A DNA stretch of 20,000 nt from contig QPGO01000091.1 in assembly GCA_008632985.1 (NCBI GenBank), positions 307,780 to 327,779 on the forward strand, written 5' to 3'. Both the position numbers and the translations under genes were made by a program. The stretch comes from Psammoneis japonica. Lineage: Eukaryota. Positions 4,240 through 20,000 of this stretch are shown one piece after another; within the stretch, counting starts at the first letter, position 1; every line of letters starts with the position of its first letter. The notes beneath the pieces are model-generated. The model had not been told where the DNA came from. It saw nothing but the letters and a program-made list of their open reading frames with translations, and did not search any database.

Positions 4240-5586
4240 ATGCGTTTTTTCCTGCCCTTTTCTTCATCTTCCTTGCCGCAGCTACCAAAGGATGACACTA
4301 CAATCCACTTGACGGCCACTGAACAGACCAATTTGGATTATGGAATACCGCCGACATCGACCGTCGATTGGTTCGAGGGTGATTATCAAAAAGTTGCGGT
4401 TGTTCTCAAGGCCCGTATGGAGGATATGTTATCACAAAACGAATGGTTGTCGGGCCGATATCTGGGCAACGACAAGTTGCATACTCGCCTACGACACGAT
4501 GCTTCAATGTCGAGGACATGTTGAAGGTGGTGGACCCATCCATATCTCCCCTTGATGACAATACATCTCCATCATGTGACGACTTGGTCTCCATGGGACA
4601 ACGAAGTAATTTAGGCTTGACGTTGGTGTGCGAAAATTATCAGTCTCAACCTTTTTGGAAAGCTTCGTTGGTCCCGACTCGTACAGGTACACACTTTGCA
4701 CTCTACGTTAGTTTGTCCCATGGGATTGGAGATGGATACGCATACTACAGCCTCTACAACATGTTGGTCGGGTCCATACCAGTGCGATCCATGACACCGA
4801 TCCGAATCGCCACCACCAAGCAGCAACAAGAAGCTGTCATGGGAAAGGAGGAAGCAAATTATGCCACGTCGCCAGGAGTTGTCTTGTTTTTTTCTGTGGG
4901 GACTGATGCAAAAATATTTTGCATGGAACAAGAAAAAGGTGCAAATGAAGCACAAGATTGTAATGGTGGACCCTACCAAGATTCAATCCGTCAAACAAGA
5001 TTATGCAGCTTCCGCAGCAAAGACGGATGCTACTTCGTCGCCAGACTTTATTTCTACCAATGACATTATCACAGCCACCCTTATGAGACATTCTGGTTGC
5101 TCCCATGGTGGCATGGCCATGAATTTACGGGGACGGCTAGAAGGCCACACTATGGATCATGCCTTTAATGCGGAAAATGATATAATCTTTCGGGTTCCCG
5201 AGGATGTGGCCACTCCCGCGTTGCTCCGAAAAGCCACAATTACCATGAGACGTGCCGCGACAATCGATAGACCCTTTGGTAGCTGGGAAATGGGTGGGTT
5301 GCGAACGAGTCTATTCTTTGTGACAAACTGGTCCACCTTTAAAAAGGATACCGATATTGTGGGATGCAAACATGTGTTCCATTTGCCAAACTACGACATG
5401 AACAAGACTCTTCCGCCGAATGCATCCATGGGTGTGATTTTCAAGCCGCGGAAAGGTCAAGTGGCGGTATTGTTGGGAGGAACTGATGAAACATTGGCAC
5501 CACTCGCCCACGCGGCTGAGGTCTTTGCGACGGCGGGGTCCTTTGAGTTGTTTCCGCCAGTAGAGCAACAATCGCTTCAAACATAG
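4240..5586 (+). CDS. HXXXD-type CoA-dependent acyltransferase (BAHD/CAT-fold-like); two frameshifts (~4470 and poly-T at ~4890)
   Basis: Three overlapping ORFs give a continuous protein: NEWLSGR, then SLSHGIGDGYAYYSLYNML (HXXXD), then FISTNDIITA, MNLRGRL, VTNWSTF. No intron is evident at the junctions. Confidence 0.7.
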
Positions 5587-5880
5587 AAGTGGTTTAATGA
5601 GAGATCGTTTGTTGCCTTTCCGCTGTCCCTACTAAAAGCTCCTGCGTGCGTCAGGACTTTATGATTCCAATCATTTTGTACTCCTTCTGTAGCTACTGTA
5701 GAGATAATCTGGTTGAAGGAGTTGTAACAAAAAAATGGCATTCCTCTTCTAAGCTAAAGACATCCGTTACCCTCTACAGGATGATGCGTGAAAAGTACCA
5801 TAGTTTGTACGTTCTATCACACTCCCTCGGTCAAGAAACCCTTCATTCCAAAAGACTCCACCACCCAAGGATTTAATGTC
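5142..5880 (+). repeat. Direct repeat copy 1 (~740 bp): acyltransferase 3' part, intergenic DNA and the last ~40 bp of the GPDH gene
   Basis: Aligns by eye with 9862-10607 from aggcc(a/g)cactatggatcatgcc through to cacccaaggatttaatgtc. Confidence 0.92.
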
Positions 5881-7155
5881 GTCTACATTATTTTGGGTTT
5901 CCTTGGGTGAAGGTTAGCTGCTGTCTCTGTCGAAGTTGTTTCGATTGGATCGATTAAGAATCTTTAGCCCCAAGTTGGTCACAATTTGGAGCAACCTGCT
6001 AGAGCAATCGAAAGGTAATGCACCACCATTGCATACGCGCTTTCAGCGGATTCATCAGCCAAAGAGCTCACATCCCTCAGCGTTCGGAGCCACCAATTTC
6101 TCTTTGATATTCCGAATTAGCTCCTGGCTTTGTTCAGTTAAGACGCTCACACGAAGCCCAAGATTATCTGCCCTGAGACGTCCAAACAACAATCTTTTGA
6201 AATCTGCCTGTCAAAAGAATCAACGCAGGTTAGGATATGACTTCAAGGATCCACTCTTTTCCACCGCAGATGATGGCTGGCAGATACAGTAAGGTTCACT
6301 GTTATACTCTAGTCTACTAGCTAGCTAGATGGCAGACAACAGACAACAGACACAGAATGATCGCGCACCCGCTGCGACCGACGCGCTCACGCAGCCACAA
6401 AACAAAAAGAAACAGCAGCCACAGAGCAGCCATGCAAATCTTTCACTACTTTGATGTTCTTGTATCCCACTCACTATCTTGACGGTCAAGTCACGACCTT
6501 GGTCCCTTGGTCCTGTTGGCGAGGTGTACCGTTCAATGCGGATAGATACTGAAGTAAACGCAGGCAGATGAGCTGACGGTGGCAAGATCTTCAATCTCCT
6601 CGTACTCTCTGCGTAGAATGCTACGTCAGGTGGCGGATCACGATTCAGTGATGATCAAGATGCGAAACTCGAAACCGAAATCGATAGAGTGTATCGTACG
6701 AACCTCTGGCAATGCTTAAGCCAGCGCCCATCGCGAGCACATGTCAGATACCGTTATCTAAATGACATACAAGGACACCCCAGGAGCTCGTGAAAAGCTT
6801 TTTAATTGTTTCCATCTTTTGACGATTTTTCCCCAAGTTTCAAGTTGGATGTGTGATCGATTTCGGGAACATGCCTACGCTCGCGGACTCGCGGAACTTC
6901 CGCAGTTGGGCAACACGGGAAACCTCTCTGTTAGTTCATTACCAACATGAGTACCGTCTCCGGGAATTTGAATTGACATAAAATTCTCCGGACCGTTTAG
7001 CGAACATTTTTGAACTGAACGTTGAGACCGGCTCACACATGAACTGTTTGTTCGTACCGGCTCGGCTAGCGCGAAAATCAAGATTTTTGCAGGAACCTTG
7101 CCGTTTGAATCAATCGTGTTCTGCTCATTATTTTCCCCGAACAAACTCGTTCATC

Positions 7156-9686
7156 ATGATGGCGGATCGCTATGAGGAAACGATCGATGCCATCAAGGCA
7201 CTCCAGATCAAGGAGGACGAGAAGCACGACGGAGAGCTTCAACACAAGGGAGAGGAGCAATCCGAGGGAGAGAAGCAATCCAAGGGAGAGGAGAAGAACG
7301 TAGAGTTTATCAAGAAGCCGCAGCCAACGGATGGTAAGAAGAGTGTTCGCATGCGCCGAATGCTTGATTCGCTCTTTGATGATATGTCTGCGCAGAAGCT
7401 GGACAAGATTCCGAAGCTCGACCTGTCGTCAACCTTGAAGAATGTTGAATTGTACCCACATCAAGAACAAGGCATCTCCTGGTTGGTTCACAAGGAAGAG
7501 TCTGACGAGCTTCCAGCCTGGTATGCGAAGAAGACACGCAAGGACAAGAAGACAGGCGAGGAAGTTGTTCGCTACAAGTGCCTAGTTACGGACGAAGAAT
7601 ATGATCAGAAGCCAGAGCCAGTCCGCGGATCTATTTTGACCGACATGATGGGCCTAGGAAAGACCATACAAGCATTGGGACTTATTGTGGCACGTCCAAG
7701 CCCAAACGAGGTTGGCACGACTCTCATTGTGTGCCCCGTTTCTGTCATGGCGACATGGGCAGGTCAGATGTCGGAGCACGCCCCCCACTTAAAATTGGAA
7801 CTCTTCTACGGCAAGAATCGTCAGGCTGCGCTGGAACTAGTTAAAGAAGGCAAGGTCGATGTACTCTTGACGTCGTACCACACGCTCGTTTCTGAGCTCA
7901 ACAAATGGAACGAATACCAGGAAAAGGACCTCGAGAACGACGAACGCAAGAAGAACGGACGTCGCATCAAGCACAAGCTTTCTCCCACAGATTTCATCTT
8001 TGACATTCCTCTCTTTCGCACCATCCTCGACGAAGCCCATGAAATACGCAACCCCGACACATTTTGTTTCTCTGCGTGCTGCGCGCTGCAGACGGAATAC
8101 AAGTTGTGCTTGACTGGAACGCCTTATGTCAATCGTCCAGAAGACATTGGTTCGCTCTTGGGGTTTCTGGGTGCTAAACCGCTGAATGATCCTTCTGTAT
8201 TCAGCAAAAATGTGACCGTCCCGATTGTTAAGCTACAAGAGGTGGGGTTGGCTCGACTTCGGACCGTCATGGCGCATGTGACTTTGCGCCGGGAGAAGAA
8301 TGTTATCAGTAGCCGCCCTCTCCCCGCCAAGACCATTGAGCTTGTGCGTGTCGGCCTTTCAGAAGGCAGTCTTCACAAGGCTGTCCTTGACAAATTCTTT
8401 GAAACAACGCGAGCGTGCATTATTGGCGTTTACCAGACTCAGAAGAATTTTGGACTCGATCGGAACGGAAAAGTCATTCGTCTTGACTTGTATCCCATTC
8501 TCGAACTCTTACTTCGGAATCGTCAGGCTGCATGTGACTTCAGACTTGTGCCCTGTGATCGTCGAGTCTTTATTGACAAAATTGCTTCGAAGGTTAAGGA
8601 GATATCTGACTGGACAAGTTCCGAAGGTACTGCGCTGCTTAAAGAAGTCATCGGGACTAAGATTCAAGACACCGATGCGGAAGAAGAGAGTTGCCACAGT
8701 GCAGTCGATGACGATTCAGATGAGGAACAGATCGAGGTTTCATTTAATTCGGAAAGTGAGGATGAAGCGGATGGTCCGCATTGCGAAAACTGTCAGGAAT
8801 CTCTCAACGAGGACACCGCGGTGGTGGTACGAAGCTGTGGGCATGCCTTTTGCGAGGGTTGCCTCGACCCAGGCGCCGGTCAGTTTTGTCCTGAATGTCG
8901 TCAGCAATACAAGCTGTCTGATTTAAGTCGTCAGATTTCCACGATGACTCCCGTCAAAACCAAGACTCCAAGGAAAAGCAAGCGTTCTTATCCAGCCGAG
9001 GAAATGAAAGAGCTCGACTTCAGAAGGAGCGCTCTCCGAAGACTGAGGCTATGCTAAAAATAATTGACGACATGGAACCCGACGAAAAGGGTGTGATTTT
9101 TTCTCAGTGGACATCTCATCTTGATATTTTGGAGGACGCGCTACTTGAAGAGGGACACACGTGCACCCGAATCGTTGGATCCATGAATGGAGAACAGCGC
9201 ATGGAAGCCATCCGAAAGTTTTCTACAGCAGAGTGCAACTCCGATGAGACACCCCGTTTCGTTCTTTGTTCAATCCGTGCCTGTGGTCAAGGCATTACCC
9301 TCAACAGGGCAAATGTGTGCTTTCTCATGGACCCTTACTGGAATAAAGCGGTCGAAGAGCAAGCCATGGACCGCGTCCATCGCATCGGGCAGCAGCGTAA
9401 AGTTCGCATTTATCGTCTTGCGATGAAGGATTCCATTGAAGAGCGCTTCTGGGACTTGCAAGATGCCAAAGCAGCCTTAGGAAAGGGTTCACTTCAGAAG
9501 CTTTCCTCTCAAGAGCGCAAGAAAGCCCGCCTTACCTTCTTGCGTGACTTGTTTCAGATTGAGGACAAGGATGTGTTTGTAGCGGACACCCAGTGGGACA
9601 CGGATCTCCACGACTTTATTGACGACGATGATCTTTCTTTCGGAAGCGATGATGAGGATGAGCTTTGGATCGAGAGTGTCTTATGA
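7156..9686 (+). CDS. RAD5/HLTF-like SNF2-family ATPase with inserted C3HC4 RING finger; intronless, one frameshift at ~9022
   Basis: LYPHQEQGISWL, DMMGLGKT (Walker A), TLIVCPVSV, ILDEAH, LTGTP, RING CENC...CGHAFCEGC...CPEC. In the second frame: SPKTEAML, IFSQWTSHLD, GQGITL, MDPYWN, QAMDRVHRIGQ. Confidence 0.9.
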
Positions 9687-9861: not shown

Positions 9862-10293
9862 AGGCCGCACTATGGATCATGCCTTTAATGCCAAAAATGA
9901 TAGTCTTTCGGGTTCCCGATGTGGCCACTCCCGCGTTGCTCCGAAAAGCCACAACTAGGCCCTACCATGAGGCAAAATGCGTGAATCGATAGACCCTTTG
10001 ATAGCTGGGAAATGGGTGGGTTACTAACGAGCAGTCTATACTTTGTGACGAACTGGTCCACCTTTAAAAAGGATACCGATATTGTGGGATGCAAACACGT
10101 GTTCCATTTGCCAAACTACGACATGAACAAGACTCTTCCGCCGAATGCATCCATGGGTGTGATTTTCAAGCCGCGGAAAGGTCAAGTGGCGGTATTGTTG
10201 GGAGGAACTGATGAAACATTGGCACCACTCGCCCATGCGGTTGAGGTCTTTGCGACAGGGTCCTTTGAGTTGTTTCCACCAGTAGAACAATAA
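9862..10293 (+). pseudogene. 5'-truncated pseudogene fragment of the HXXXD acyltransferase
   Basis: 10012-10293 encodes FVTNWSTFKKDTDIVGCKHVFHLPNYD...FELFPPVEQ, almost the same as the 4861 ORF. 9862-10010 carries indels and stops; the N-terminus and HXXXD motif are absent. Confidence 0.85.
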
Positions 10294-10607
10294 TCACTTC
10301 AAACGTATAAGTGAGTTGCTGGGAGACCGTTTGTTCCCTTCTGCTTCCGCTTTCTTTTCTAAAAGCTCCGGCGTTCGTCAGAACTTAATGGTTCCAGTCA
10401 TGTTGTACTCCTTCTGTAGCTAGAGCTAGAGGTAGTCTCGTTGAAGGATTTGTAACAAAAACGGCATTCCTCTTCTAAACTACAGACATGCGTTACCCTC
10501 TACAGGATGATGTGTTGAAGTACCATGCTTTGTACGTTCTAACACCCTCCCTCGGTCACAGAAACCCTTCATCCCAAAAAGACTCCGCCACCCAAGGATT
10601 TAATGTC
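9862..10607 (+). repeat. Direct repeat copy 2 (~745 bp), overlapping the true 3' end of GPDH
   Basis: Diverged copy of 5142-5880; nearly identical over the acyltransferase C-terminal codons and more diverged in the intergenic part. Confidence 0.92.
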
Positions 10608-12986
10608 TTCTGCCTTTGTTCCACCCAGACTTATCTCAGCAGACAATTGTTTGTGAAATGCAGTATCCGCTCCGTGATTCCACCACTCCTCGAATTCTTC
10701 AAAACTGACTCGCCCGTTTCGGTTCTCGTCCATTTCTTCGAACGCCTTGCTCAATTCATCATCTTGCATGGGGAATCCCAACACGGATGCAACTTCTCCA
10801 ACTTCGGTACGATCCAAGAAACCGTTTCCATCCGTATCAATAGCCGCAAACAAGTCCTTAATCTCTGTGTAGGTTGCATCTCGCAAGGTGGAGCCGGCCT
10901 TGTTGGGAATACGTCCCGCATAGGATTCCACATACTTTTGCGCCAAAATCTTTTGTTCCGCCTTGACATCTTCCGACCAACCCAGCTCGGTTGCCATAAT
11001 GTCTGCGACATGAGGAATGGCCGCAAGAGCAGCGTCCTTGTTGAGGAACGCCAAACGCGTACGCCGGCTCAACACATCCTCAATGGTGCAGGCGTATTCT
11101 CGACAGGCATACACGACTTCGGCATCAATGTAGGGAAAGTTGGGCGCCAATGGAACACCAAAGCGCGGCCATACCTGATTGGTGGGTTGCGACAGTTCGC
11201 ACACCTCCCATGCCCGACCACCGTAGGTTTTGGCTAAGTGGTTGGCCGTCTCTTGTGCCATGCCGTGTTTTTGAATCAATTGAACAGCCAAGTTTTCTGA
11301 GTCTGCGCAAAAGAAACGAGGAACAGAGAGGGTATATTAGAACAATGGTATACAATGTAATACCATCACGCACATACGTACATCCATCTCCACCAAAGAG
11401 AGTCATGTCGAGCGTTTTGCATTTTGGTCCGTCCGTTCCAACGACACGATCAATCACTTCTTCTGCCATTTCTCTCCACGTCGTCCACTTTCCTCCGGCA
11501 ACAAACAATACATCCGTGTCGGGATTTTCGGAAATAATGTGATCCCTCGACACGGGCGCATCCGGTGGAGCGTGCGGGTCCACCGCCAGCGGTCTCCATC
11601 CCCGCCAAGCACTCAGCACGTCGGATCGGCGCACAAGCAAATCTTTGGACAGGTACTTGCCACACTCGTTCAGTAGCCACTGGACTTCATCCTCGGGTGG
11701 ACTAGGCAGCGTTTCGGCTGGACCCTTTGTGTCGGTCGTTCCCACCAGTGTGTGCTTTTCCCATGGCAAAAAGAAGAGAAAGCGACCATCCGACGTGTTG
11801 TAGTCCAACAGTCCCATCTATTGTGTAGTAAGTAGCAAAGAAAGAAAAGGGAAAAGAAATACGAGAGTAAGCATCAGCTAGTTGCTCCATTTCCTTTGAC
11901 CACGAAACAATTACTTACATCGTTTGGACAGTAGTAACCGGGCAAGACAACATGGGTACCAGACGCACCACGGACCGCGGGTTGCATGTCTTTGGACGGT
12001 TGTTCCATTTTACGCATATCATCCGTAAACGGCCCACCGGCCAATACAATCTTTCTTGCTTTGATTTCAAATTCCTCATTGGACATGCGATCCACCGCCT
12101 TGATACCCACAGCCTTGCCCGTTGTGTCGTCGAGAATCATTTCCGTCATTTCGACATAATTGGCAATCGTGGCTCCCTCCTCGGCTGCCGACAGGGCAAT
12201 GGCAATGTTGGTCCGGGCATCATTGTGTTGAGCCTCGTAAAAGACGGCACAGTACTTGATTTGTCGACCCGACAATTGGGGAAAGGCCAGTTTGGCTTTG
12301 GTCTTGCCCATGCTATAGGACGGGGGACACGTGAAACCCGAGAGCGAATCGTAAAATTTCAAAACAAAAGGTGCCAAAACGGGAAAGAATCCAAACAGGG
12401 CATGGCCAAAGGGCGGTGGACTGACATGCCATGAATCAAAGGGAATGGCAATGGGAACCCAATTGGTCAAGTGCTTTTGCTTTTCCGTCATGTACCGTCG
12501 TTCTCGATGGCAATTGATTACCATTTTCATTTCGCCGTAGAAATCCTTGATGGTATCGATGGGATTGGTAAAGAGTTTGGTGCTGAGTAGAGAGACAGAA
12601 GCGGTAGCCATGTACCGAATACCGGCCCAAATAAGCTTGGTGCTTCTCGAACTTGTTTCCGACGCAAAATCACCTCGTTCAATGCACGCCACCGACAAGC
12701 CACGTGAGGCAGCATCCAGAGCACACCCCGCTCCCGTGGCACCACCACCGACAATTAACACGTCATATTCAACATCCTTCGACTTGAGGCTTTGCAATTG
12801 ATCGGCACGAGATGGCAATCCCTCGGGACCTTCTACAGGCTTGGGATGCGTCGCAACGCCCGTCAGATTCAAGCCGGCATCTCGTGTAGCAGTGGTTGAA
12901 AAGTACGAGACGCACTGCCATTGATTTCTTCTCGAAAACGACACGACTCTTGTGCTATTAAGAACGATACGCCCGTGTCGCAACAT
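10569..12986 (-). CDS. GPD2: Mitochondrial FAD-dependent glycerol-3-phosphate dehydrogenase with two C-terminal EF-hands. Exons 12986-11919, 11817-11382, 11302-10569
   Basis: DVLIVGGGATGAGCALDAASRG, DFASETSSRSTKLIW, LVGTTD, AGGKWTTWREMAE, DVLSRRTRLAFL; EF loops DTDGNGFLDRTE and DENRNGRVSFEE. Arg/Ser-rich presequence. GT-AG introns at 11918-11818 and 11381-11303 keep the frame. Confidence 0.95.
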
Positions 12987-13134
12987 GGTTGGCAAACACA
13001 CAAAACAGAGCTATATGAATACTCTGGACTTGCAAGCAAAGTCCCGGTCGTTTGTTGTTGCCGTTGCCGTTGCCGTTGCGTCGAGAAAAATGAGACGAAT
13101 CACGAATCCTTTCTTCGTTTGCACGTATGTATTG

Positions 13135-14710
13135 TGCTGACGAATTCCGACCGCGCGATCGTCGTCAGAATTCTCGCGCGACGTCATCTCCTTGCCCTGC
13201 ATCCAGTTTGCCTGCTCGTCCTGGCCCACTTGCCAAGGCTCACCTCAGCAGCACAAGAGACAAACTCTCTTTGGCAACAGCAGCCCCTCTGCCAATGGCA
13301 CTTCTGTTGTCAATGCCACCAACCAAGCTGGTGGCCGGCTCCTCCTCCCTTTTGCCTTGTTTCTTTTTGGCCATTTGTGTGGTGGCGCCAGCTGCAACTT
13401 CTGCGCCTTCTTTGTTGGCTCATCTTATGACCTTTCCACTTCTGCTCCTCCTCCTCCTCCTCCTCCTCCCCCCAAGCCACCCTGGGCTGATTCCTCATAA
13501 CCTTCTTTCTCAGCCTGTCAAACATCCCAGCACTTTCTCCAACCAACATCCTGGCCAGAGCCATTGTTGCCTGCTTGCAAAAGCAACTGCTTTCTCCTCT
13601 GGCCGACTCAGATCCTCCCGTCACTCATCCACCCCCTCTGTCTTGGTCTGTGCAGCTCCTCAGTCTCAACTTTGGTTTGGCCTCAGCAAGCCACCCAGTG
13701 CTGCCAGTCAAACTGTCCTCCACACTGACACTCCGCCTCTCTTTGTCCTCTCTCCCCGCCAGTCATCTGCGCACACGTGCTGCCAGAGCCCTCCTTTTTG
13801 CACTGCTGTCCCTTCTAGTCTCCATGGCTGTGACTCCACTGCCACTCATTTCTGTTCAAGAACCCAACTTTCTCACACCTTAAATTCCCCAAATCATCAC
13901 AAAAAAACACCCAAAACATTCCCACGTGGCAGTGGACACACCACACACAAAATCAACCATGTGACAATCACAACATCTTGGCGCCCAGCAATCACAACTC
14001 TGACACCGACATGCTCTCTAGTCCCCACATCAACAGCACAAAGAAAAGATGAGCACATCCACCAAAAAAAGGTGAGCAAAAATGGGGGAAAGTGGGCAAA
14101 CACGGCCTTTTGCCATGTCTTGTGCGCCCAGCCTTCCATGGGGTTGAGTTGTTGCAGCTTTGGTTTGTTGGTGACAGACTGAAGAGTGTGCAACCCGTTG
14201 TTTTCTGGAAAGTCCCCCAAGGAATGTGAAAAAAAGAGGTTGATCTTGTCCTTGGTTGTTGTTGAGTGGCCACTGGGCTTGTTTTGCTTGGTCAACTGGC
14301 GAGTGGAAGCACGGTCGAGCAGCTGCCGGGCTTGTTGTTCGTTGGGCCCAGCACTGGGAGACTCAACAGCCCGCCCTGCTTTCTTCTTTGAAAGTTCACA
14401 TGCAATCATCCACCATGTTGTGTTGGTGTGGCAAAGTTGCGACGTGTTTTGGAGACGCCATGGATGCCACATTTGTGCATGAGTGTGCCACTGGATGCTT
14501 TCAGCCACTCGCGACTCTTCTGGCTGAGGGCAGGGGTCATCCCCCACTTCTTTTTCGCTCGTGTCTCGTGTTTTGCTCCAAAAAGCTCGTGATTCGTGAT
14601 TGTTTCAGATCGACATCTTTTGATCATTACACCGGCACACGGGATCATCATCCATCATTCATCATGGTCGCCATGAACACACACACTGCACGACGTCTCT
14701 TTTTGTCAAC
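13135..14710. other. TpA- and CpG-depleted, TpG/CpA-rich block; probably a heavily mutated repeat or TE relic
   Basis: About 6 TA dinucleotides in ~1575 bp and about 30 CG in 13201-14580. Long overlapping ORFs on both strands are nearly Tyr-free and have no recognisable domain. Confidence 0.7.
13446..13469 (+). repeat. (CTC)n microsatellite
   Basis: ctcctcctcctcctcctcctcctc, about 8 units. Confidence 0.8.
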
Positions 14711-14988
14711 TCTAGGGCCCTCGATATTTTCTGGGTCGGTTGAAAATTCCTGTCGCTGTACTCCTTAACGGTAGTAATCCGTTGGGGTTGAGGATACGAA
14801 TATCTCGCCATGTTGGGAGCGGCCGCAGTACGAGAGAGATAGAGCAATCGACCCACCTAGCCGGCGATTATCTTGTTGAATATACCTCTGCTAAGAGCAG
14901 AGTGGAAATGACGGCTTGCTCTTCTACACCAAAAATTACGACATCATAGCCAAGTATCATTGAACCTCACTCAATTATTTGTACTCGT

Positions 14989-15336
14989 TGTGGGAAAGTA
15001 GCCGGAATTCTAAGATTCGTCTGCACTTTCAGTGATTAAAAGCTGCAATTACGATACAACAATCAATCAGTAACTTTATTGTACCAAAAGTTGAGAGGTG
15101 ATAATCAGTACGTTAGAAAGATTATGAGCAGTTTTTATGAGCAGATGCAGCTGCCATCTAAAGGAAACGCGAAGTTAAACAAGCGCGAAGCTAGGAACAA
15201 ACATCGCATTCGTGACTCGGCTTCCGCGGGGATTCGAGACTGAGCATCGCACACGGGGTTCGAATCTTGGATCTTTGACTTGAATCGTGGAGGTCCGATG
15301 TTGTTGTAAAAACATGCAAATATGAATATTGTCACA
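14989..15336 (-). repeat. 3' LTR (start at 15336 firm; end 14989 tentative, alternative 14811)
   Basis: Begins TGTGACAATA directly after the PPT; AATAAA at 15080-15075. Candidate end ...CTTTCCCACA (TGTG/CACA termini); alternative ...CTCCCAACA at 14811. No second LTR in the window to confirm. Confidence 0.65.
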
Positions 15337-15344
15337 CTCCCTTC
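15337..15344 (-). promoter_or_regulatory. Polypurine tract
   Basis: GAAGGGAG immediately before the LTR TG, about 35 nt after the pol stop. Confidence 0.8.
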
Positions 15345-15379
15345 AACAATGTCGGGTGGAATGATGACTCGAAAACGTC

Positions 15380-18300
15380 TTACCACTTAAGGAGCGATTT
15401 CCTGTGTTTAACGAAGAGATTCTGTGGTAGAGGTTTGGTGAAAATGTCTGCAATCTGATCCGCCGTATCAATTGGTAGGATTGATATGAGACCTTTGCGA
15501 ACATGGTCTTTAAAGTGGTGGAGAGTGAGGTTGAAGTGTTTTGTCCGAGGACGCATCTTAGGCAATCTCGCGATCTCCAATGCTCCAGAATTGTCTTCAA
15601 AAGCCTTACAATGTACGACTGGTGTCTTGGAAGGGACATTATGACCGTGATCCATAAATTCTTGAATGAGGTTCATAATTGGGATGGCGCTTCGAAGACT
15701 TTCCGAAAGAGCGATAAATTCAGCTTCAGTAGTGCTGAGCGCGATCTGAGTCTGTAGCTTGGACGTCCAGACAATCGGACATCCTGCATAGGTGATGACA
15801 AACCCAGTTCGAGATTTGGAAGTGCCGACGTCATCGGGTGCAGTCAGCTTATTCCAATTGCCCACAAAGTCCGCGTCGGCGTGAACTTCAAGGGACTTGT
15901 CCGTTGAGGGCTGTAGTATAATACCTTCAGTTCTGGTTGACCTTAGGTACTTACAGAGCCATAGTACGGCTTCACCGTGAGAAACCTTGGGATCGGAAGA
16001 AAAGCGTGCGACTTGGTGCACCGCGTAAGCGATATCCGGTCGAGTGCTCTTCTCCAGAAAATTGAGCTTGCCGATGATGGATCGGTAATGAAAGCTCCCT
16101 TGGAAAGCAGGCTCACTCATATGCCTGTGGAGGATCTTGGAGGAAGGAGCAGGAGTAGACTTATCTGGTAGTCTCTTTGGAATATTGGCCATCTCCAGTA
16201 TCTGATTGATAAGGTGAGGTTGGGTAAGTTTCATTCTGCCGTCTGGTAGTGTCTCGACGTTGACACCGAGATAGTCGTCCAGAGTGCCTTGATCATCAAT
16301 ATCAAAATTCTCATCTCTGATATCCTGTATCGCCTTGTCAATAGCAGACTTGTCAGGGGATGCAAAGATACCGTCATCGACATAATGAATGAAAATGACA
16401 TTGCACGAAAATACAGGCACTCATCAACCGCCGATTGTACGAAACCAATCCTTAACAATCCATCACGTAAGTGTTCTTGCCATACTCTCCCTGCTTGCTT
16501 TTGTCCATATAAGTTCTTGAGCAACTTCAGAACATGAGTCTTACCATTGCCATATTTTGTTTCAATTCCTGCAGGTAATCCATGTACATATCATATTCGA
16601 TATCGGCATGCGGATACGCCAGAACGAAGTCGACTTGGCGTGTATGCCACTTCTTAAGAATGGCAATGATCAGTAGGAGCCGGATAGTGAACCAGAAGAC
16701 CACGGCAGAGTAGGTCTGGAAGTAGTTGACAGCATACTCTTGCTTTCCGCCGTGCACATTAAGTCGGGACTTCCATTGTAGACGGCTTGGGTCTTAATAT
16801 CTCTTTTGCGCTTCATAGACCATACCGAAGGGAGAACATCAACATCGTCAGGTACGTCCTCTCTTGGAATGAGTATCCAATGTTTCCTTTCAATATGATC
16901 ATTGACCTCCTTAACACAGGCCTTGATAAATTCGTCTCTGTCAGGTTCACGCATAGCCTGATCAAAGTACATGGTGTCGGGGTCCGAGCTCGCCAGAAAA
17001 GAGATAGATGAGTCCATATCGTCCTGCAGTTTGTAATCATCCTCGTGCATCGCATCATAATATGCCTCTGCCTCTGCATTGTAGGAGACAATGCCTTGAG
17101 CCCGTTGTAGTTGGCTCTCGCGCATTCCTTTCGGTCGGGCGTCGTTGTCGGCCGGACCTACTGGTACTGGGCTGACCCATAGTGCGCTGTGGCTCAGATG
17201 GTGCGTCAGAATCATCTGGAGGCGTGTATAGCATTTCGTCATCCGGTTGGGCATTATCAAATGAGTCATCAGTGGTAGACGTATCAGTAGGATGCAGCAG
17301 CTGAGACGGGACATCCGAATTCGGCTCAGGTGGTTCCGTTGTGGTAGGGACTGATCCCTCAACCGGTACGTCACTTGATTTCCCAAAGATGTTGAAAGTA
17401 CTCCTTGTCTTGAGTTGTCTGAAACCTGTAATGCCTTGCCATTGTGAGAATGTAGGAGGATTCCCAGCAGATGGACGAACAGTCTCAAAGAAGTCGTCAA
17501 ATTGTACGTGAAATTGCGGCGATACGAGTCCGGTCTGCAAATTCAAAACCAAGGTAACTGAACCTGCGTGTCTTGTTGATGGTCCCAAATTGATTCCTAA
17601 CCTTGCCCTTGGGTCCCACTTAGGCAGCCTACCTCCTCCCTGCAACCGGTTGTGCAAGGCGTAGACGGGACAGCCGAAGGTATGGTGTTGTTTGAGATTA
17701 GGCTGGACCTTGACGGACGAGAAACGTTCCAGCGGAGAAGAGCCGTCCTCGTGATTCGGTAAGTGATTCTTGATCTCGTTTGAGTTCCTGAGAGCGCTTG
17801 GCCATAAGTTCAACTCAATAGCCGTTGGCCATCTCACTTTTGCATGCAGGAGTTGCTTCCGAGATTGCTCTTGGAGGTCCCTTATTCTTTTCTCCGCGAT
17901 GCCGTTTTGGAAGTGGGCGTTGACCCCACAATAGGATATTGTTTGCTGTTGCTTCTTGACGTCTTGTATGAAAGCATTATCAGCAAATCTTCCATTGTCG
18001 GCGTGGTAGTGTTGAATACGGACGTGCATCCGGCGTGCGAATGCCTCGAAAGCGTGCTTGGCTTCGAGCGTCTCGGCTGAGGTAAGTCCTTTCTGCAAAT
18101 ATATGTATCCCAATCCGCTGAAATGATCAACAAAAATTGTCGCTGCTCGATACCTTTGTTTCGTAGGTCTCCCTTTGAGCTGTGGGATCAATCCAGGAGT
18201 AGGACTCTCGAGCTGGTCGACGGATACGGCTTCTCCAGGCGAAGTTGCCAAGTGGATTCGTCGGTTCCGCTTGGACTTGGAGCGCCATGGTCGTTTCGTC

Positions 18301-19637
18301 ATGGCACCGTATAGGCAGCCGGCACATTTTGGGTTGTGTACCTTTGTAAGGCGTTTCGGTAGAATGCCTAGGGCGGCCAATAGCTTTATCATTTTGAATG
18401 ACATGTGGCCCAGGCGGTAATGCCAACGCAATAGTTCACCCTGGTCATCTGTGGCAGCAAGGGCGTCATCATTTGGTATGATGTTGATGGGTTCCGGTAA
18501 GTCCTGCTGTACCTCCGGTGTCGTGAAATCCCTTAGGTTTTCCTCGTCTGAGTCTGAACGACTTGCTCCGTCTGTTGGCTCAAATAAGACAGGAGCATCC
18601 TCATCAGTAGTGTTGCGTGCGTCTTGCGTCTCGGAAGGACGTGTCTCGGATGGACTTCTGAAGACGTCTGTATCAATTGCAGCCTCGTCATCATTCGCAA
18701 TACTCTCGTCGTCTGGTGGTATGATGTGAGCTTGATAGGCCACGTGCTCGATAGTTTCGATATCGGTTTGTTCTTCGACAGCGGCTGCAAAGGTCCGGTA
18801 TTTGTTGGAACCGGGTGCGGAGCGCATCTTGGCGACGTTAGAGTTGGCGGACCATGGAATCAGGCGATGATACTTGCGTTGATCCCACATGAGTAATAGT
18901 CCGTCGTCCCTAGTCCAAGATACGGTTCCGTGAGGCTCTGGCGTGTGGTCATTAGCTTGCTGGCTCCATTGCTGCGGGCAGAGAAGACAATGAGGTAAGT
19001 CCGGTACGAGTAGCGCGTCTCGAATTTTGATGCTGTGCACTCGTCCCATGTCGTCCTCAATTGCCCACTGCACTGTTCCTTCTCCCTTAGCACGTAAGTA
19101 GCCCTTGACACCGAGTACCACTTTGTTGGATTTGCGAAGAGGACCAATGAAGTGTGCCTCGTCGTTGGACATGGTGCAGGAAGAATGCGAGTCGACACCG
19201 ATTACGAATGAGTCCGAATCGTAAGTGGGCTCCGTTCGCTCGGGACGGTATGGTGTGGTTGAGTTGTACGCTCTAACCGTCTTGTATCGCGTAATGACAT
19301 AGTGAGCCTTCTTGGTGGCCACTCTGGAGCGGTGACCTGGCCTCGTCGACGTATGATACCGTGCGCAGTACCTCGTCGTTGGCCGTCGCTGGTAAGTCTT
19401 AACTCGTCTTGTGCCTAGTTCAGCCAGGATATGTGAGATGACCCACTCACCCAGCGTCATTACGGCATGTGACAGGCGCTTACACTTTTCTGAAGGAAGG
19501 GATAGCATCATGAATAGTAGTATGATCCAGATCGGTGCTGCACATTTCATGACGCCAGCGACCGCTATCAGGAGCACTGACACAGTGACGGCTATCTGCA
19601 AGGACAGCAGCAGTGTCAGAGTGAACCTGTAGAGCAG
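15380..19637 (-). CDS. pol: Copia pol polyprotein (hydrophobic leader, protease, integrase, RT, RNase H); four single-base frameshifts at ~17125, ~16776, ~16578, ~16404
   Basis: Protease IGVDSHSSCTMS; WHYRLGH...CAGC zinc domain; integrase SVDQLES, ADNG, NGIAEKRIR; RT SVWSMKRKR, RLNVHGGKQ, QVDFVLAY, LYGQKQAG, HYVDDGIF; RNase H ADADFVG, STTEAEFIALS, EDNSGA, DQIADIFTKPL. Confidence 0.93.
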
Positions 19638-20000
19638 TCACTCTTGATCCACTTCGTTTAGGATGGTAGAGATAGCACTTGCGAAGGAGACTTTCTTGTC
19701 CGACGTGTCTGTGGATGGAGCAGACTGTTGCTTGCGGAGTCTACAGCCTTGGTTGCCCGGATCATCAGGTAAGTGTATGACCCAAGCAGTGTGATATGGG
19801 CACCAGTGATAGTCGCGATTGTTGACGCGCTTGTGATAGTACTGATGACCGTTCACTGTCTTCTTAGGAGCGTCCTCCTTAGGCGGGACTTTCTTCCAGG
19901 CTTCGTCCGCTTTCTGTCTCTGACGTGGAGTGGTCTTGGTCTTCCTTGACCGTGTGCTTCTTTCCTTGGTTGAACCAGCCTTGGCCTTCAAAGCTTTAGA
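19638..20000 (-). CDS. gag: Copia gag, C-terminal part (open to the window edge)
   Basis: Basic region, AWKKVPPK, then a Cys/His knuckle YHWCPYHTAWVIH...C and an acidic end NEVDQE-TGA directly upstream of pol. Confidence 0.8.
   Translation of the reverse strand, partial: SKALKAKAGSTKERSTRSRKTKTTPRQRQKADEAWKKVPPKEDAPKKTVNGHQYYHKRVNNRDYHWCPYHTAWVIHLPDDPGNQGCRLRKQQSAPSTDTSDKKVSFASAISTILNEVDQE

Follow-up and report, generated by a model that had tools for sequence, protein, structure and literature searches.

A putative UGA read-through signal at the gag-pol junction of a Copia retrotransposon clade, examined from a locus of Psammoneis japonica

Introduction

Read-through of the stop codon that ends gag is textbook knowledge for the gammaretroviruses. 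In murine leukaemia virus this stop is UAG followed by G, with a pseudoknot after an 8-nt spacer, a type III signal (Firth et al. 2011, PMC3159437). Viral type II signals, as described in the same source, combine UGA-CGG or UGA-CUA (UGA-UGG in one furovirus) with an extended 3' stem that begins 7 to 9 nt further on and shows compensatory changes; they are listed for the alphavirus nsP3/nsP4 junction and for the replicases of tobra-, peclu-, furo- and pomoviruses (PMC3159437). Here we analyse a stretch of 20,000 nt from Psammoneis japonica (positions 307,780 to 327,779 of the forward strand of contig QPGO01000091.1, assembly GCA_008632985.1), called the window below. It carries, on its minus strand, a Ty1/copia-type long terminal repeat (LTR) retrotransposon whose 5' end lies beyond position 20000 and whose gag and pol genes are separated by a single in-frame UGA. 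Our results suggest that programmed read-through of this UGA, aided by the stop context and a stem-loop 3' of it, probably sets the Gag:Pol ratio of the lineage.

Stop codons between gag and pol have been described in other LTR retrotransposons. Tca2 of Candida albicans, a Ty1/copia element, has a gag-UGA-pol arrangement with a predicted 3' pseudoknot; its junction alone gave no read-through in Saccharomyces cerevisiae and contains an internal promoter (Forbes et al. 2007, PMC2194720). The original prediction for the window, made from its sequence, took Copia elements to use normally one open reading frame (ORF), splicing or frameshifting, a list that overlooks the gag-UGA-pol layout already known in Copia from Tca2 (PMC2194720). 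Among the Ty3/gypsy elements, Tj1, Tcry1 and Tosmo1-3 of fission yeasts carry an in-frame TGA in a conserved GAA-TGA-CT context (PMC10085805). The CoDi elements of diatoms resemble the window element by description only, being Copia-like with the domain order protease, integrase, reverse transcriptase (RT) and RNase H (Maumus et al. 2009, PMC2806351; Llorens et al. 2009, PMC2774666).

Results

A single in-frame stop separates gag and pol

On the minus strand the junction of the window reads ...GTG GAT CAA GAG TGA CTG CTC TAC AGG... From the window edge (position 20000) to the TGA at 19640-19638 the gag frame has no stop; beyond the TGA the same frame stays open for 860 codons, to 17055, through protease and integrase. 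This agrees with the original prediction, which had gag ending in GAT CAA GAG TGA and pol continuing in frame without a further stop. Word-indexed protein searches with the junction peptide, written with X at the stop, gave no match. To compare other copies of the family, we used contigs of public sequencing runs (X1 and X2), probably from the source sample. At the RT frame breaks described below, the X2 contigs agree with the majority of copies and therefore derive from other copies; one of them spans 19475-19766 with one difference only, at 19656, and keeps the TGA. No variant at 19638-19640 was present among the 40 best-supported of 675 variant positions, among which the nearby majority change at 19593 is listed.

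A full phmmer search with the pol ORF returned 11,636 proteins at E <= 1e-3, the best with 57% identity. From an alignment of 21 sequences found with phmmer we took 77 loci (L001-L077) in aquatic and other metagenomes, and the pol frame was walked upstream in each. Sixteen of the 77 reach the contig end before any stop and L025, in which the pol match starts at residue 381, was left out; 60 remain. Exactly one stop lies between pol and at least 100 open codons of the same frame in 54 of these 60 loci, with at least 400 open codons in 39 of the 54. As for the other six, the contigs of L023, L032 and L045 end too soon, the upstream ORF of L069 and L074 is in another frame and L047 has a TAA after 5 codons. 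L069 and L074 are either decayed copies or rare frameshift-type junctions in the clade. The motif DEAWKK..PPK...WC..H..W..H is common to the gag of the window and the upstream ORF of the relative L013, and the two upstream ORFs are therefore the same gene. At 5154-5223 of the L013 contig, downstream of a pol fragment, lies a further gag-pol junction with the same sequence as that of L014, which suggests tandem or nested copies.

The choice of stop codon is restricted. In 48 non-redundant loci (near-duplicates removed) gag ends in TGA in 44 cases and in TAG in 4, never in TAA, and all four TAG codons are followed by G. Pol ends mostly in TAA: of 26 closed ORFs with 1100 codons or more, 17 have TAA, 5 TGA and 4 TAG. 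Many of the relatives' pol ORFs are uninterrupted over 1400-1660 codons, and hence these elements are not dead copies. A quick pol tree has two main branches and long terminal branches, with the window nearest to L001 at 49% identity. A sense codon in related copies would count against the UGA as a signal; in the distant relatives, in which this point of the original prediction was checked, we see an in-frame stop in 54/60 loci and TGA in 44/48. A single conserved in-frame stop of a leaky type between two coding regions, as in type II signals, is thus found across most of the clade.

Context of the stop codon

The window has UGA-CUG, a favourable 3' context. Across 49 junctions, the window included, the base after the stop is C in 24, T in 10, A in 10 and G in 5, so that C is the most frequent next base and A, T or G occur in a sizeable part of the clade. 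The triplets after the stop include UGG (9), CUG (6), CUU (5), CGG (4), CUC (3) and CUA (1), among others; the codon before the stop is GAA in 18/49, and CTN follows the stop in 15/49. UGA-CGG, UGA-CUA, UGA-UGG and UAG-G are listed as viral read-through contexts (PMC3159437), and UGA-CU is among the short contexts that reportedly promote it (PMC10085805).

RNA structure and covariation after the stop

The RNA that follows the stop is more structured than other parts of gag and pol. Over an 80-nt segment starting 3 nt after the stop, the mean z score is -1.42 (n=49), as against -0.56 to +0.27 at seven control positions in gag and pol (Mann-Whitney p = 6.8e-12). When the 100 nt after each stop are folded by minimum free energy (MFE), a hairpin usually starts within ~10 nt, and a sliding 70-nt energy profile shows a modest dip at the stop only (-17.4 vs about -12 to -14).

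Compensatory changes are present in two sub-clades, G1 and G2, one on each of the two main branches of the pol tree. G2 (11 sequences) has, after a 10-nt spacer, an 8-bp helix in which 97.7% of cells are paired, compared with 29-55% for slid controls. Four of its eight pairs change on both sides: one, for example, occurs as G-C, A-U and U-A, both partners being third codon positions, of Pro and Ala, and several of the compensatory changes in this group fall at third codon positions. The covariation score of the whole G2 structure (the 8-bp helix and a 5-bp outer one) was matched by none of 500 shuffles. At E < 0.1 a covariance model of the G2 hairpin had 17 matches in 472 kb, all of them at gag-pol junctions and one of them in a new locus, L005. 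In G1 (13 sequences) the layout is stop, 6 nt and GGYC...GRCC, with the compensatory GGUC/GACC in place of GGCC/GGCC in two sequences. The second stem of G1, built from 10 different 5-mers, is paired in 63 of 65 cells, whereas 20,000 permutations gave a mean of 47.7 and a maximum of 58. The spacer between stop and stem is gap-free within each of the two alignments. A stem that was not conserved would count against its being part of the signal, as the original prediction allowed; compensatory changes in G1 and G2 were what the check, in distant relatives only, brought out.

For the junction of the window a long stem had been proposed, and the RNAfold MFE structure of 19642-19557 contains all of the claimed helices: a 10-bp outer stem that includes the UGA, CAGG/CCUG, a GACAC-type middle stem and GCUGUC/GAUAGC closing the loop CUUGCA. 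Its energy of -38.8 kcal/mol compares with -25.7 +/- 3.0 for 200 dinucleotide shuffles, none of which was as stable (z -4.41). The plus strand of 19557-19642 reaches -30.1 kcal/mol (z -1.60, 14/200 shuffles as stable). The G-U pairs on the sense strand, several of which had been predicted, therefore make the fold specific to that strand. Most of the significance stems from the outer 10-bp stem: a fold from +4 onward has -29.3 kcal/mol (z -2.10, 4/200 as stable), and the hairpin in its 201-nt context has a z of -1.89. By the time the UGA is in the A site, the ribosome has unwound the outer stem, and hence only the inner hairpin, which starts ~8 nt after the stop, can act. In this model, the inner hairpin could meet the mRNA entry channel of the ribosome while the UGA is in the A site. 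Most other copies differ at position 19593, where their apical stem has, on the sense strand, U-G in place of U-A and so stays paired. For a stem-loop at a spacer of ~6-9 nt, the window family thus offers fold energy and this one pair-preserving variant, while the covariation is confined to the two sub-clades of relatives. The exact 86-nt fold of the window family as the signal is weakly supported.

Hydrophobic segment downstream of the stop

A membrane-span-like segment (19-residue Kyte-Doolittle mean >= 1.6) occurs within the first 120 residues after the stop in 44/49 elements. No such segment was found in the last 120 residues of gag (0/49) or in pol residues 400-520 (0/47). A hydrophobic domain between Gag and protease, as predicted from these sequences, seems to be a hallmark of the clade. 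The position of the first in-frame AUG is not conserved and varies between 0 and 90 codons after the stop. The hydrophobic segment is wholly before the first Met in 13/44 elements, including the window, and overlaps it in 11 more; together with the rule that gag and pol share one frame, this argues for ribosomes passing the stop and not for fresh starts downstream. Short peptide motifs after the stop, such as RPAWL..AMAEAP and LLCWP, are conserved within groups.

The element and its copy in the window

Pol of the window element has the order protease, integrase, RT and RNase H, which is also that of the full-length relative P0013 (Table 1). Two of the Pfam matches in this broken copy are below cut-off, namely Pol_BBD (22.8 bits vs a cut-off of 27) and RVT_2, the Copia-type RT (24.6 bits, in 15380-16420); the gag part of the frame had no match in a Pfam search. 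The active-site region of the protease in the lineage is FDTDSFxIGVDNxASxCxTN, not the usual D-S/T-G-A (consensus of 21 sequences; 18966-19220 of the window, minus strand), and the window copy has VDSHSS where the lineage has FDTDSFxIGVDNxAS. The 3' LTR is only a probable one, because the 5' LTR lies outside the window.

The family is present at a depth of ~2000, as against ~60 in the flank, i.e., roughly 30x. Near 17125, 16775, 16578 and 16403, the four RT frame breaks of the window, most copies are one base longer or shorter, and there are many G>A and C>T differences between the window copy and the majority of copies. The copy in the window is damaged downstream, where RT and RNase H are frame-broken.

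Table 1. Features of the window, with positions counted from its first letter
Feature	Position	Strand	Remarks
3' part of gag	19641..20000	-	120 codons up to window edge; motif DEAWKK..PPK...WC..H..W..H....C
In-frame UGA between gag and pol	19638..19640	-	Context GAG-UGA-CUG
86-nt hairpin	19557..19642	-	Outer 10-bp stem includes UGA; -38.8 kcal/mol, z -4.41
Inner hairpin	19570..19631	-	Starts ~8 nt after stop (CAGG...CCUG); -20.7 kcal/mol, z -1.38
Putative read-through extension upstream of protease	19197..19637	-	Starts with hydrophobic, membrane-span-like segments; first in-frame Met is codon 30
Protease region	18966..19196	-	Pol_BBD match, residues 148-224, below cut-off
Integrase region, to end of intact frame	17055..18458	-	gag_pre-integrs residues 394-444; SH3_retrovirus 645-715 (Pfam)
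RT and RNase H, split over four frames	15380..17542	-	ORFs 16670-17542, 16527-16793, 16231-16590, 15380-16420
Probable 3' LTR / element end	14990..15379	-	Depth steps up from ~60 to over 1500 near 14990; end of a single-copy contig at 14989
At least 11 short GT..AG introns, 70-108 nt	16467..19867	+	Antisense to element; skipped in X2 contigs
Example antisense introns	18082-18166, 18995-19090, 19221-19302, 19392-19475, 19769-19867	+	Joints in X2 contigs
Direct repeats of ~750 nt	5142-5889, 9862-10616		79-100% alike; ~4.72 kb apart
SNF2-family helicase gene	6982-9686	+	RING finger, Helicase_C
Host gene fragments split by introns	331-1343, 10572-13010	-

Probable antisense introns and neighbouring genes

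The strand opposite to the element carries probable introns. The X2 contigs are transcriptome-sized and skip short GT..AG segments, and X1 lacks these joints; X2 is therefore probably RNA, though labelled 'DNA?'; a run search listed three runs of one sample, none of them recorded as RNA. All six antisense introns that were inspected have GTAAGT at the 5' end. The 3' end is a clean AG in five of them, and in the sixth, near 18589, the 3' boundary has to be moved slightly. GTAAGT occurs on the plus strand 10 times within 16224-19769. The whole window has 14 occurrences, where 5.6 +/- 2.3 are expected. Compared with synonymous-codon shuffling, 48 elements (47 relatives and the window) have an excess of antisense GTAAGT (109 vs 61.3 +/- 7.2) and a deficit of sense GTAAGT (8 vs 23.6 +/- 4.5); the antisense sites occupy all three codon phases. 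The hairpin sits in the antisense exon 19476-19768. A protein-coding antisense gene was considered and rejected, as no long ORF emerged when the known antisense introns were removed from 17623 onward. Multi-intron antisense transcripts have been described for the non-LTR element TART (PMC1636488); none was found described for Copia elements in the literature searched.

The remainder of the window outside the Copia element consists of host genes. The two direct repeats flank the gene for an SNF2-family helicase, an arrangement that may be a segmental duplication or a captured gene and not an ordinary LTR element. Of the intron-split host fragments, one encodes a leucyl-type class I tRNA synthetase and the other a FAD-dependent glycerol-3-phosphate dehydrogenase with a DAO_C domain and EF-hands.

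Discussion

Programmed UGA read-through with a 3' stem-loop is, as judged by comparison of sequences, well supported at the level of the lineage. Most ribosomes would halt at the gag UGA and release Gag, while a small fraction would insert an amino acid there and go on in frame to make Gag-Pol, giving a low ratio of Pol to Gag. The leakiness would have two sources. One is the identity and context of the stop, UGA then C (UGA-CUG in the window), in many cases preceded by GAA or GAG. As the second, a stem-loop beginning 6-10 nt downstream of the stop would lie at the mRNA entry channel of the ribosome. That read-through occurs, with what efficiency, and that the inner hairpin of the window stimulates it, are what we infer from these features. 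The original prediction that the lineage sets its Gag:Pol ratio in this way holds for the lineage, given the stop, the structure and the covariation in relatives; for the exact 86-nt fold it holds only weakly.

The clade resembles the viral type II systems (PMC3159437) in its UGA, in the favoured C (or CGG, CUA or UGG) after it, in the distance to the stem (7-9 nt in the viruses, 6-10 nt here), in compensatory substitutions within a coding region and in the proposed production of a polymerase fusion at a low ratio. It differs in that those are RNA viruses and these are LTR retrotransposons, in that the viral structures extend over 100-200 nt and the hairpins here over ~30-90 nt, in that sequences and shapes here vary among sub-clades and in that the signal here is predicted from sequences. 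Tca2 (PMC2194720) belongs to the same superfamily and shares the in-frame gag-UGA-pol layout and a predicted 3' structure. It is likened to the window element by layout, not by phylogeny, and the support offered here is comparative, from many lineages and from covariation. Tj1, Tcry1 and Tosmo1-3 likewise have an in-frame TGA between gag and pol, and their GAA before and CT after the stop recur in the clade at the frequencies given above; they belong to another superfamily with another order of pol domains, and no downstream hairpin is reported for them in the available part of the source (PMC10085805). Murine leukaemia virus (PMC3159437) is matched by the four relatives with TAG, all with G next, by a similar spacer and by the proposed Gag-Pol fusion through read-through, whereas the window element uses UGA-C.

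Several observations weigh against programmed read-through as we propose it, or against the hairpin as its stimulator. Tca2, the one Copia element tested, showed no read-through of its junction alone in S. cerevisiae (PMC2194720). For the window family, conservation of the TGA comes from one contig and from the absence of a variant among the 40 best-supported of 675, and among those 40 only one variant within the hairpin was seen. The outer stem contains the stop itself and must be open during decoding; the inner hairpin (19631-19570) alone is not significant (-20.7 kcal/mol, z -1.38, 20/200 shuffles as stable), and in the fixed 80-nt segment after the stop the window junction has a z of only -1.1. 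In the clade, only 11/49 junctions reach z <= -2 in that segment, and the geometry of the hairpin varies among sub-clades. An RNALfold rank test was weak, with the junction first in 1/49, a median percentile of 0.30 and a combined p of 2.5e-4, and the start of the first helix hardly separates junctions from controls (26/49 vs 12-19 of 46-49). There are exceptions to the single in-frame stop, namely L069 and L074 with their other frame, L047 with TAA after 5 codons and L057 with what is probably a secondary stop. The loci are also mutually related, and the counts are therefore not independent events.

Alternatively, the UGA might be a true terminator, with Pol made by reinitiation, by internal ribosome entry or from a separate or sub-genomic pol transcript, and with the hairpin serving that process or an unrelated one. 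The Tca2 junction, with a promoter and no read-through in S. cerevisiae (PMC2194720), is in line with this explanation, as are the first in-frame AUG of the window, directly after its hairpin, and, in G2, an in-frame AUG (GCCAUGG) within the 3' arm of the hairpin. Independent initiation needs no common frame for gag and pol, yet the frame is shared across a single stop in 54/60 loci; no AUG position is conserved, the first one being 0-90 codons after the stop, and the conserved hydrophobic segment is wholly upstream of the first Met in 13/44 elements. The near-exclusive use of TGA, the leakiest stop, with TAG only before G, would be purposeless at a true terminator, and we consider this explanation unlikely. 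Rather less likely still is that read-through depends on the stop and its immediate context only, the hairpins being by-products of coding or serving packaging, dimerisation or RNA stability. The lack of significance of the inner hairpin alone, the 11/49 junctions at z <= -2 and the varied hairpin shapes would all be expected on this account, and a favourable effect of short contexts such as UGA-CU has been reported (PMC10085805). The compensatory changes at synonymous positions in two sub-clades, the spacer fixed within each group and the excess of structure after the stop, with none at seven control positions, argue against this account.

It is also conceivable that the UGA is read as a selenocysteine codon or as a sense codon in the genetic code of the host, since a UGA with a nearby hairpin resembles selenocysteine recoding elements in general. 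We rejected this as highly improbable: no Rfam match, SECIS included, was found in 14500-20000 at E <= 1 (the element extends 5' beyond the window), there is one in-frame TGA only per ~1800-2200 codons in each element, and TGA ends pol in 5/26 elements while four relatives end gag with TAG. The RT frame breaks, together with the many G>A and C>T changes relative to most copies, might point instead to a nonsense mutation peculiar to a dead copy. This, too, was rejected and is scarcely credible, as a contig from another copy, with the majority state at the RT breaks, keeps the TGA, as a variant at 19638-19640 is absent among the 40 best-supported of 675 differences, which do list the majority change at 19593, and as the same single in-frame stop is found in 54/60 distant relatives.

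Taken together with programmed read-through, the other features of the clade allow a wider reading, which we regard as doubtful but worth stating. The Copia clade would be old and widespread in aquatic microeukaryotes and would carry a modular cassette of UGA, 6-10-nt spacer and stem-loop, convergent with the signals of RNA viruses. Besides setting the Gag:Pol ratio, read-through would add the post-stop hydrophobic segment (44/49), so that a membrane-anchored Gag-Pol might arise, which Gag by itself could not form. Built-in antisense introns, spliced in the window family, would possibly blunt silencing by double-stranded RNA.

We found no account of the signal of this clade in the literature searched on read-through in Copia or diatom retrotransposons; among Copia elements, read-through was found documented for Tca2 only, with its mechanism unsolved. 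The putative read-through signal of the clade is a further case of a mechanism known from retroelements and viruses. The ~50 diverse natural junctions from one clade form a comparative set with which to learn what stop contexts and what geometries of the hairpin drive read-through in little-studied eukaryotic hosts. Recognition of the signal also helps to annotate such elements correctly, as one gag-pol unit and not as two genes or a pseudogene.

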